From UHGV virus genome UHGV-0473420: a stretch of DNA of 15,568 nucleotides. One strand, 5' to 3'. Source of the DNA: a virus. Positions within the stretch are counted from its first letter, which is position 1. Each line of letters starts with the position of its first letter. The notes below the pieces were generated by a model. It was not told where the DNA came from and ran no database searches. It saw only the letters and a program-made list of their open reading frames with translations. Below are positions 11,349 to 12,770 of the stretch, piece by piece. Both the position numbers and the translations under genes were made by a program.

Positions 11349-12283
11349 CCACTATTACCAGAGAACAGGCACAGAAAATTATTGAAGCAGCCGATGAGGT
11401 TATTAGTGCGCTGGCCGGAACTAATGAGGATGTTCACCCTGGTAGCGATAACATGCTACGTCTGTGGGATGACCTGAATGACCGTCACGCGCCCCCTGAA
11501 GTTGTGCGTGAGTTGGCACGAATTGTGCTGGCATCGCTGGAAGCAGAGCCTGTTCTGTATCAGTCCTGCACTCGCCCCACCTGGAATAGCGGTGTTCCGT
11601 GGACGGAATGGAAAGAACGAAGTCGTGAGTGCTACGAAGACGATTTGCGCTTTACAGACACGCCTGACCATGCCGGTTGGATATACAAATGTCGAAAACT
11701 ATATACCAATCCGCCAGCGCCGATAGCGTTGGAGGCTATTGAAAATGCAATTGAATACATTCGCAGTATCGCTTTTCACATAGATGAAGACGATTACCAC
11801 GGCAAACATATTGCGTATTTCATGCGACAAGCATTGGCCTGGCTGGAAGGGTATTCATGCAGCGACGACAGACTGGGTAAAGCCGAGAATCAAACAGTAC
11901 ACGGCAACCAGGCTGCCGAATCCAATCGCGGTAATGAGTGGACCGGCAATCCTGATATTGATAACGCCATCATCATGCTCGGCATAGATACGGCGGAAAG
12001 TTACGATGATGACCGTATTGAGGCTGTTAAGGCTGTTTTGCGTAGACTGGCTGGCAACTCTCCGGTAACTCCGGATGGTTGGATAAGCTGTAGTGAGCGA
12101 ATGCCAGATGATGGTCAGCACGTAATTATTTTATGTGATAGCGCATTCGTTCTTTATGCGCAATATCGAGACGGAGAGTTTTTCGATATTGTCCGCAATG
12201 GTGATGAATTTTTCGAAACACAGAGTCGCAATGTAACCGACTGGATGCCGCTACCAGAACCGCCGCAGGAGATGCGCCAATGA
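11345..12283 (+). CDS. paralog family member 3 with C-terminal DUF551-like domain
   Basis: N-terminus MTTITREQAQKII and ELARIVLASLEAEPVLYQ shared with paralogs. C-terminus PDGWISCSERMPDDGQHVIIL...VTDWMPLPEPP matches the DUF551 pattern as recalled. Confidence 0.6.
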   Translation: MTTITREQAQKIIEAADEVISALAGTNEDVHPGSDNMLRLWDDLNDRHAPPEVVRELARIVLASLEAEPVLYQSCTRPTWNSGVPWTEWKERSRECYEDDLRFTDTPDHAGWIYKCRKLYTNPPAPIALEAIENAIEYIRSIAFHIDEDDYHGKHIAYFMRQALAWLEGYSCSDDRLGKAENQTVHGNQAAESNRGNEWTGNPDIDNAIIMLGIDTAESYDDDRIEAVKAVLRRLAGNSPVTPDGWISCSERMPDDGQHVIILCDSAFVLYAQYRDGEFFDIVRNGDEFFETQSRNVTDWMPLPEPPQEMRQ

Positions 12284-12363
12284 ACTGGCCTGAAGCATTC
12301 GCAACGGTAGGCGTTGCATTTGCGGTAGCCCTGATTGTCTATTCATTTTCCCGCTGGGGGTAA
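12280..12363 (+). CDS. small hydrophobic peptide (27 aa, single predicted transmembrane helix)
   Basis: ATG in ATGA overlap with upstream stop; AGGAG (12267-12271) 8 nt upstream. Product MNWPEAFATVGVAFAVALIVYSFSRWG. Stop TAA 2 nt before next ATG. Below ORF-track cutoff. Confidence 0.4.
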   Translation: MNWPEAFATVGVAFAVALIVYSFSRWG

Positions 12364-12365
12364 CG

Positions 12366-12599
12366 ATGGGAAAAATAACTTTTGTTGTTGAATTCGAGGA
12401 TGGTAAAGAGCCACCTGTTAGCGCCAATCTTGATGTTGCTGGTGGCAGGCTTGTTTCGGTTCTATTTGGTGACTACCGAGATGATTTCTTCCAATCAGAA
12501 GAAGTTGATGTAGTGCGAGAAGCATTAAATGAGCTAAGTGTTGACAACGATGATGCTCATGCGGAAATCATCCAAAAAATGGAACTGCTAACTCACTAA
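12366..12599 (+). CDS. small acidic hypothetical protein
   Basis: 77-aa ORF tightly following the small peptide ORF; acidic (…DYRDDFFQSEEVDVVREALNELSVDNDDAHAE…). Confidence 0.5.
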   Translation: MGKITFVVEFEDGKEPPVSANLDVAGGRLVSVLFGDYRDDFFQSEEVDVVREALNELSVDNDDAHAEIIQKMELLTH

Positions 12600-12647
12600 A
12601 TTATCAATTATGGTGCTATCACCTACGACACAGAGAGAAATTTTATA

Positions 12648-12770
12648 ATGTCAAAAGTAAATGTTTTGATTTTTTCAGCAATTGTAGGTTTTGGTTTTTC
12701 TGCTGGAGTGCAGATTTATATTGCGTGGGGGGAAATCATCAACTACGCATGGAGTTGTTTTATTAAGTGA
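12648..12770 (+). CDS. small hydrophobic peptide (40 aa, putative membrane peptide)
   Basis: ATG 12648 with weak purine-rich SD; product MSKVNVLIFSAIVGFGFSAGVQIYIAWGEIINYAWSCFIK. Lies in an AT-rich stretch; stop 7 nt before the next ATG. Below ORF-track cutoff. Confidence 0.3.
   Translation: MSKVNVLIFSAIVGFGFSAGVQIYIAWGEIINYAWSCFIK

Follow-up and report, generated by a model that had tools for sequence, protein, structure and literature searches.

Small membrane proteins of phages and bacteria

Bacterial inner membranes contain small regulators, such as KdpF (29 amino acids), AcrZ (49), MgtS (31), PmrR (29) and CydX (37), which bind a larger membrane protein, are often missed by annotation and are often encoded beside, or overlapping, larger genes. 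Here we describe two open reading frames (ORFs) on the + strand of a 15,568-nucleotide stretch of the UHGV virus genome UHGV-0473420 (the window, whose first letter is position 1), namely ORF27 (12280–12363, 27 amino acids) and ORF40 (12648–12770, 40 amino acids). We consider it likely that both are real genes for single-span inner-membrane microproteins, situated in a mosaic accessory array of the Ea22/EaA or "exo-xis" type. Their products resemble the bacterial regulators in being shorter than 50 amino acids and consisting of little else than one membrane helix, but share no sequence similarity with them and are encoded by phage and plasmid accessory genes rather than chromosomal core genes.

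Other small hydrophobic proteins offer further points of comparison. Type I toxins (Hok/Gef, TisB, ShoB, Ibs, ZorO and DinQ) are hydrophobic inner-membrane peptides of 19–50 amino acids, often found in prophages and expressed from a tightly controlled mRNA of their own that is paired with an antisense RNA. The ORF27 and ORF40 peptides are similarly tiny and hydrophobic, and some prophages have hok-like loci near ORF27, but both ORFs are coupled genes within a + strand operon array and match neither Hok_Gef nor any RNA family. Holins carry a charged C-terminal tail, in contrast to the tail of only 3–4 residues in ORF27 and the uncharged amphipathic stretch in ORF40; neither ORF matches a holin family, and their neighbours are Ea22/DUF551-type and other accessory genes. 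The Pf3 major coat protein (44 amino acids) is a single-span protein with its N-terminus outside, inserted by YidC. ORF27 shares with it a short acidic N-terminal tail, one helix and an Arg-Trp pair at the cytoplasmic helix end, a layout that by analogy suggests the same N-out, C-in insertion, although ORF27 is much shorter, has no homology to Pf3 coat and has no virion role. To our knowledge, the characterised proteins of the exo-xis region are all soluble, unlike the predicted membrane peptide of ORF27. The small genes of this region in lambda and Shiga toxin (Stx) phages comprise ea22, ea8.5, orf60a, orf61 and orf63 (PMC10834534, PMC7093339), and ORF27 occurs in the same genomic neighbourhood. 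They are among the earliest transcribed genes and influence the lysis-lysogeny decision, with Ea22 acting as a pro-lysogenic factor (PMC10834534). ORF27 falls in no curated family and ORF40 is a member of PHROG 5525; both are akin to the small single-span membrane proteins of phages and bacteria.

Conservation of ORF27

The product of ORF27 is MNWPEAFATVGVAFAVALIVYSFSRWG. Its ATG overlaps the TGA of the upstream DUF551 gene as ATGA (12280–12283), and an AGGAG Shine-Dalgarno sequence (12267–12271, +) lies 8 nt 5' of the ATG within the last codons of that gene, an arrangement that would couple translation of ORF27 to that of the DUF551 gene. The TAA of ORF27 is separated by 2 nt from the ATG of ORF77, whose GGGGG Shine-Dalgarno sequence sits within the last codons of ORF27. 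A preliminary description of the window had proposed both small ORFs at these coordinates, with the ATGA overlap and the AGGAG motif inside the upstream gene, and all of these features could be read in the sequence; the hydrophobic membrane character that it attributed to both peptides is likewise borne out by the analyses below. It had also named a lack of frame conservation among related genomes as grounds for rejection, and neither ORF shows such a lack.

Homologues were sought with blastn and with degenerate DNA patterns, because tblastn with so short a query (27 residues) assigns an E-value of ~5 to a match of 74% identity. The first 114 bp of the blastn query (DUF551 tail plus ORF27) matched many Stx and lambdoid phages and lytic Av-05-like phages at 72–80% identity. 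All ten records read contain an unannotated gap of ~85 nt after the upstream gene, and nine of them hold an intact ORF there, 27 codons long except in SJ46 (24 codons, through an in-frame 9-nt deletion). Scanning of IMG/VR with a pattern that fixed only the first 32 nt of ORF27 and required the ATGA gave 133 instances encoding 34 distinct peptides. About 95% of these instances have exactly 27 codons, the rest being in-frame indel variants (23, 24, 29 and 30 amino acids) and one truncated copy. Most of the 34 peptides share N- and C-terminal motifs, with the family pattern M-[NST]-W-P-[ED]-A ... Y-S-x-C-R-W-G, while a few variants of 23, 24 and 30 amino acids lack the C-terminal motif. The peptide in the window, MNWPEAF...FSRWG, fits the N-terminal M-[NST]-W-P-[ED]-A and the C-terminal [CSF]-R-W-[GW] at a length of ~27 codons. 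To judge from these comparisons, the frame and its 27-codon length are conserved across lambdoid/Stx prophages, P1-like plasmids and lytic Av-05-like phages.

The substitution pattern indicates that the ORF27 peptide is under purifying selection. Among 50 unique 84-nt sequences, mean pairwise differences at the three codon positions were 3.81/2.44/7.97, with synonymous (pS) and non-synonymous (pN) differences of 0.35 and 0.12 and a pN/pS ratio of about 0.35–0.36. Positions 1–11 of the alignment are partly fixed by the search pattern and positions 12–27 are free; codons 12–27 gave 2.72/1.44/5.19. The mean BLOSUM62 score of replacements was +0.59 in the ORF27 frame and between −0.6 and −1.1 in the five other frames. 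A Shine-Dalgarno-like motif was present at −16 to −4 in each of 158 homologous instances, and in 120 of them the overlapping TGA closes an upstream frame that is open for 50 codons or more. Start, Shine-Dalgarno sequence, frame and 27 codons are together retained in at least 50 nucleotide variants.

ORF40 and its relatives

ORF40 encodes MSKVNVLIFSAIVGFGFSAGVQIYIAWGEIINYAWSCFIK and lies within the 178-nt gap between ORF77 and the true start of ORF97 (12778), with its TGA forming part of the ORF97 Shine-Dalgarno sequence GTGAGGT. The product matches phrog_5525 over the full profile (residues 1–40 on positions 1–40 of 40; E = 2.5e-22, 79 bits), and the exact sequence is present in GenBank as RDO76043.1. 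In a set of 55 P1-like contigs anchored on a 16-mer of the upstream intergenic sequence, ORF40 is intact in about 52.

An exhaustive HMMER search, covering 1.84 billion representative proteins, recovered further relatives. Those in lambdoid prophages (P0059, P0060, P0062, P0063) are 58–60 amino acids long, have C-terminal extensions and are 46–51% identical; one of 43 residues (77% identity) occurs in a further P1-like lineage whose gene order is the same. Between the P1-like and lambdoid clades nucleotide identity is ~60% and synonymous sites are saturated (pS 0.7–0.8), against a pN of ~0.3, which is a clear coding signature in relatives that are ~50% identical at the protein level. Eleven residues are invariant in the alignment (K3, G14, F15, G16, A19, G20, I25, W27, I31, N32 and W35), and the lambdoid relatives have strong GGAGG Shine-Dalgarno sites.

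The ORF40-like genes of two loci also connect the two families. The one in L204 comes after a DUF551 tail ending ...PLPEPPQEVK*, the one in L202 after a protein ending ...AAAPQEVK*; the junction in both is CAGGAGGTGAAGTGATG, with the same CAGGAGGTGAA..ATG joint as ORF27, and the junction found 5' of ORF27 elsewhere, CAGGAGGTGAATCAATGA, is essentially that of L204 and L202. Two unrelated families can therefore occupy the same coupled slot. The shared position behind Ea22/DUF551-type genes suggests a portable coupling joint, and the two families possibly have analogous roles.

Several ORF40 alleles (relatives P0006, P0007 and P0008) change frame after residue 28–30 and acquire ...NHQLRMELFY tails. 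The break falls in a G/A homopolymer (about 12727–12740 in the window; most relatives have GGGAAAAAATC) that may be a slippage-prone site. One database source names the ORF40 cluster as a YidC/Oxa1/SpoIIIJ insertase. We regard this as an annotation error, the matches to Pfam 60KD_IMP (E = 0.19; 12.1 bits, where the curated cut-off is 35) and NCBIfam YidC (E = 0.21) being set against a protein of 40 amino acids and one helix, where YidC proteins are multi-span and exceed 200 amino acids; the weak YidC, ZupT and Yae1 matches of ORF40 are composition artefacts.

Genomic setting, mosaicism and distribution

Nucleotide identity and gene order identify the window as a P1-like phage-plasmid, in its accessory gene array after the PmgS-like and phosphatase genes. 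The 2.9 kb around both ORFs is 94–96% identical to P1-like phage-plasmids (RCS47, P1-like isolates, SJ46 and vB_EcoM-813R1). The equivalent region of RCS47 lies downstream of a PmgS-like gene and a 3'-phosphatase gene and consists of Ea22/EaA/DUF551-type accessory genes, all on a single strand, followed by hot, humD and phd/doc. A 551-bp segment spanning ORF27 and ORF40 has matches in 225 PLSDB plasmids, covering at least 80% of its length in 208; these are mostly ~92% identical, non-mobilisable and from E. coli or Salmonella, and the single one inspected is an IncY replicon of ~97 kb.

The segment is mosaic. An eaa gene and an ASCH gene replace ORF27, ORF77 and ORF40 in RCS47, the 97- and 124-residue genes being common to both, and since ORF27, ORF77 and ORF40 are missing from RCS47 and P1, ORF27 and ORF40 are dispensable accessory genes. 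Base composition is uneven, with GC contents of 0.41 (ORF77), 0.31 (the intergenic stretch), 0.35 (ORF40), 0.395 (ORF97) and 0.405 (ORF124), against 0.47 for the whole window. The preliminary description had placed both ORFs, together with the membrane protein at 13078–13452, in one AT-rich cluster of small membrane proteins absent from annotation. Low GC indeed extends from ORF77 through ORF124 (0.31–0.41), but not to ORF27, whose GC content is 0.51. ORF124 is membrane-like as proposed, yet soluble proteins of 77 and 97 amino acids lie between, and the presence of ORF97 and ORF124 in RCS47 without ORF27, ORF77 and ORF40 contradicts a single functional cluster; ORF27, ORF40 and their neighbours are better described, from their distribution, as separate mosaic modules. 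As for annotation, none of the 15 annotated records inspected (RefSeq included) has a coding sequence over ORF27 on its strand, whereas ORF40 is annotated in SJ46 (YP_009293547.1) and 813R1 (URC10368.1) and is not listed in the one plasmid gene table inspected.

ORF27 is widespread in E. coli. By blastn, 3783 copies were found in 1518 of 5426 complete E. coli RefSeq genomes, over a quarter, with a median of 2 and up to 9 copies per carrying genome. Many of these matches span exactly query base 19 (the A of the ATG) to base 102 (the last base of the stop). The upstream genes are unrelated, with C-termini ...PEPPQEVNQ* (DUF551), ...LISVEDILR*, ...NIEQEVNR* and ...KKKGMNQ*, and on the downstream side the stop is followed by a DUF4222 gene (at 4 nt), by ORF77 (at 2 nt), by mok/hok-like loci (at ~150 nt) or by nothing. 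These exchanges on both sides mark ORF27 as an independent mosaic module of normal GC content. In BP-4795, VT1-Sakai and PhiR12_1 it stands just before xis/int, following Ea22-type or DUF551 genes, and it is probably co-expressed with the Ea22/exo-xis region.

Within a scan of species-representative genomes, true copies were found in E. coli, Shigella flexneri and one further P1-like locus (L292), and not elsewhere, although the pattern fixes several residues and divergent copies could escape it. Two tiny contigs with ORF27 look like contamination; Photorhabdus matches were rejected, as they lie inside a larger ORF, and the remaining matches are due to chance. In K-12, where CPS-53 alone among the prophages was inspected, yfdT comes straight after yfdS (DUF551), and ORF27 is missing. 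Escherichia phage Av-05 (L011, Vequintavirinae, lytic rV5-like) carries an intact ORF27 at 814–897, MTWPEAFTTVGVVMAVAFAVYSVCRWG, after a gene ending ...KKKGMNQ*, so the family is not limited to temperate phages. Killer loci of the hok/mok type lie ~150–210 nt downstream of ORF27 in ~30 prophage instances (L012 1053–1265; L016 1802–1957; IMG/VR); they include "host killer protein", hokD and ORFs beginning MLYTRRLASYVP or MLNTCRLASYVP, and the arrays of these prophages end with ORF27.

Several database irregularities were associated with ORF27. The copy of Shigella phage POCJ13 (L006 1231–1314) is inactivated by a TGG-to-TAG change at codon 3, and the record instead holds a 43-residue coding sequence on the opposite strand over the same DNA (PI30_gp73, 1236–1364, −), probably a miscall. 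A few GenBank submissions carry ORF27 as "bacteriophage protein" or "hypothetical protein" (for example AOM45384.1, ETI78407.1 and EIL24003.1). Clusters at 90% identity that contain the 27-residue peptides are represented by DUF551 proteins of 121 and 185 amino acids that do not contain the peptide, and GenBank partial proteins in the ORF27 frame (P0020, P0025) are named "DUF551 domain-containing protein, partial"; both look like clustering or naming artefacts arising from the overlap. ORF27 has no Pfam, NCBIfam or PADLOC family and no PHROG match better than E = 0.019.

Membrane character and possible mode of action

Each peptide contains one membrane-length hydrophobic segment, with maximum mean Kyte-Doolittle values over 19 residues of 2.03 for ORF27 (1.85–2.63 among its variants) and 1.82 for ORF40, compared with 2.60 for ORF124 (residues 66–84) and clearly soluble values for ORF77 (0.98) and ORF97 (0.07). 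Among small + strand ORFs mostly outside the large genes, a scan of the 15.5-kb window found only three with a membrane-like segment, more than chance being indicated, ORF40 being masked in that scan by a TTG extension of the 97-residue frame. The AlphaFold2 model of ORF40, built from a small alignment, is a single continuous helix over residues 2–39 (mean predicted local distance difference test score 85).

Membrane insertion and topology are predictions. The ORF27 peptide consists of little beyond one helix between Trp3 and Trp26, ~22 residues apart. Its N-terminal end has one acidic residue and its C-terminal end one Arg. Membrane topology is predicted on the established basis of the positive-inside rule, and its acidic N-terminus and C-terminal Arg therefore predict an N-out, C-in orientation. 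In the unbiased part of the alignment A15, A17, Y21, S22, C24, R25 and W26 are conserved, and the ORF40 product has a membrane segment that carries the invariant GFG-x-x-AG and leads into an amphipathic tail, which is also conserved. Helix-helix contacts in membranes typically involve small and polar residues of this kind. Because almost no residues lie outside the membrane and small or polar helix residues are conserved (G11, A15, A17, Y21 and S22 in ORF27), the peptides would act within the bilayer, binding a larger host or phage membrane protein and modulating it. We prefer this model, by analogy with the small regulators above, but hold it tentatively.

A broader and more doubtful proposal is that ORF27 and the slot-sharing ORF40 family form an unrecognised class of early-operon membrane microproteins, moved as a portable cassette and directed at a specific host inner-membrane target. 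The cassette would consist of the ...PQEV[NK]Q* tail, GGAGG and the overlapping ATG, and the microproteins that it delivers would influence superinfection exclusion, the lysis-lysogeny decision or host physiology.

Alternative explanations

Several observations weigh against reading both ORFs as microprotein genes. The antisense frame that shares the wobble positions of ORF27 is also open (58/59), with a pN/pS of 0.32, so the codon-position statistic alone leaves the strand of ORF27 undecided. Replacements in that antisense frame have a mean BLOSUM62 score of −0.78, and we assign ORF27 to the + strand because replacements are conservative in the sense frame only, its ATG, Shine-Dalgarno sequence and stop are conserved and all flanking genes are on the + strand. 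Its peptide strings were not found in the literature searched or in the supplements of the Sakai ribosome-profiling and Enterobacteriaceae microproteome papers, the former thus giving no direct evidence of translation. Searches of Pfam, NCBIfam, PADLOC and PDB sequences gave no meaningful match for either ORF and no homology to any characterised small protein. For ORF40, the Shine-Dalgarno-like motif is only a weak GAGAGA, alleles with an ATG-to-CTG start change (one), a frameshift (one) or loss of the stop occur among the P1-like contigs, and the 13 variable sites in the P1 clade are distributed 4/4/5 over the codon positions, without a coding signature; constraint on ORF40 within the P1 lineage may be weak.

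The alternative that survives best, though we think it unlikely, is that the peptides are membrane-damaging toxins of the holin or type I kind. On this view they would assemble into oligomers that depolarise the inner membrane or make it permeable, and their purpose would be host shut-off, abortive infection or plasmid addiction. Both are very small and very hydrophobic single helices with small-residue motifs capable of self-association (G11xxxA15 in ORF27, GFGxxAG in ORF40), and the hok/mok-type loci 150–210 nt downstream of ORF27 in several prophages place killer peptides in its neighbourhood. Against this, neither matches Hok/Gef, a holin or another toxin family in PHROGs or, at E up to 1, in Pfam, NCBIfam or PADLOC, no antisense RNA family matches and promoters and terminators are not in excess. 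The genes are translationally coupled in long operons rather than separately and tightly repressed, as many as 9 ORF27 copies coexist in one genome, and no lysis genes occur among the flanking annotated genes inspected. The interval 11800–13600 has no match to known RNA families in Rfam at E up to 1, and promoter-like sites are no more frequent than in shuffled sequence; with no terminator excess either, we rejected an RNA element or regulatory site as the function of this DNA.

It is quite improbable that ORF27 is only a translated spacer, encoding a functionless peptide, that would hand ribosomes on from the DUF551 gene to the next one or prevent Rho-dependent polarity. Its ATGA overlap upstream, the Shine-Dalgarno sequence of the next gene inside its last codons and the start of that gene 2–4 nt after its stop in many contexts would suit such a relay, but a spacer would account neither for purifying selection with conservative replacements nor for a length fixed at 27 codons, and ORF27 keeps its C-terminal R-W-G even without a gene within ~150 nt downstream and in several prophages is retained at the end of the array.

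Marginally less probable still is that one or both ORFs, ORF40 being the likelier candidate, are chance frames in non-coding or otherwise functional DNA. T-rich sequence automatically yields hydrophobic residues, and at the GC content of ORF40 a run of 40 stop-free codons has by our own estimate a likelihood of ~6%. The start-loss and frameshift alleles, the weak Shine-Dalgarno motif and the absence of codon-position bias in the P1 clade fit this reading, as does the variability of ORF40 (0.108 per site), similar to that of the adjacent intergenic sequence (0.146). However, the lambdoid relatives of ORF40, at ~60% nucleotide identity, keep ~50% amino acid identity, the 11 invariant residues and GGAGG sites, with synonymous sites saturated between the clades against a pN of ~0.3; for ORF27, the length, codon-position and BLOSUM62 evidence and the lack of an Rfam match speak against chance.

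Finally, it is hardly credible that ORF27 is a C-terminal membrane anchor, fused to part of the DUF551 protein pool when ribosomes undergo programmed −1 frameshifting close to the overlap: its frame is open for ~17–20 codons upstream of the ATG in several genomes (P0026, P0063) and the partial proteins P0020 and P0025 bear DUF551 names, but ...GAA CCG CCG CAG GAG ATG CGC CAA TGA holds no canonical slippery heptamer, ORF27 also follows unrelated genes (those ending ...LISVEDILR* or ...KKKGMNQ*), every copy has its own ATG and Shine-Dalgarno sequence, and the database search returned no long DUF551-ORF27 fusion proteins, the DUF551 cluster members being without the peptide.

Neighbouring genes and other small elements

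The gene upstream of ORF27 (11345–12283, +) encodes a 312-residue Ea22/EaA-type protein with a C-terminal DUF551 domain (Pfam E = 2.7e-20, residues 245–308). RCS47 and P1-like records annotate it as EaA or as a protein containing a DUF551 domain. ORF77 (12366–12599, +) encodes a soluble acidic protein of 77 amino acids (phrog_3876, E = 7.9e-52); it is annotated in 813R1, SJ46 and a plasmid, and its variable sites per codon position are 13/12/26. Its N-terminal half (residues 3–45) matches positions 2–44 of phrog_6925 (113 positions), and the C-terminal part of the same profile matches the DUF551 domain of the upstream protein (11345–12283), which suggests domain shuffling between accessory genes.

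ORF97 (12778–13071, +), for a soluble protein of 97 amino acids, has an annotated length of 294 nt in three records (RCS47, 813R1 and a plasmid), with 11/8/31 variable sites per codon position. As PHROG 1258 aligns over residues 1–97 of 97 (E = 7.9e-49), the 126-residue TTG-started ORF at 12691 is a spurious upstream extension of this frame, whose true start is 12778. The membrane protein of ORF124 (13078–13452, +; 124 amino acids; phrog_2638, E = 4e-63) has a hydrophobic segment of ~31 residues (about residues 56–88) followed by a very basic C-terminus.

A third small hydrophobic ORF of 28 amino acids, MNTAFKIIMAAIYFWLFSITFGGIVAHG, occupies 6173–6259 (+) in the gap after the 3'-phosphatase gene, with AGGAG 8 nt upstream; the following gene, at 6269, has a Shine-Dalgarno region (GGGTAAGGGGGATGCATG) that includes the stop of this small ORF. 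Eighteen P1-like loci retain the peptide, and the short form is the likely gene because in three of these loci stop codons interrupt an upstream ATG extension from 6125. Immediately downstream of the phosphatase gene, ahead of the 28-residue ORF, 6124–6144 (+) forms a GC-rich hairpin, CATGCCGCAAGGCGCGGCATG, which could be a terminator or an RNA-processing site between modules. Gaps between + strand ORFs of at least 60 amino acids also occur at 14115–14381 (267 nt) and 9570–9742 (173 nt).

Implications

The main value of these results lies in the recognition of a very widespread and essentially unannotated family of 27 amino acids, a conserved microprotein missed by current pipelines. Small hydrophobic phage ORFs are common, and without a phenotype ORF27 represents an improvement of annotation rather than a surprise; should a target come to light, the small regulators of membrane proteins would gain a phage representative. 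An overlooked ORF27, tied in its translation to Ea22/DUF551 genes, could complicate the interpretation of deletions in the Stx exo-xis region, because it sits in the exo-xis/Ea22 region that affects the lysis-lysogeny decision (PMC10834534). If the proposed class of early-operon effectors were real, ORF27 would be a widespread unannotated phage effector, since many E. coli genomes hold several copies, including in O157:H7 and other Shiga-toxin-producing strains.

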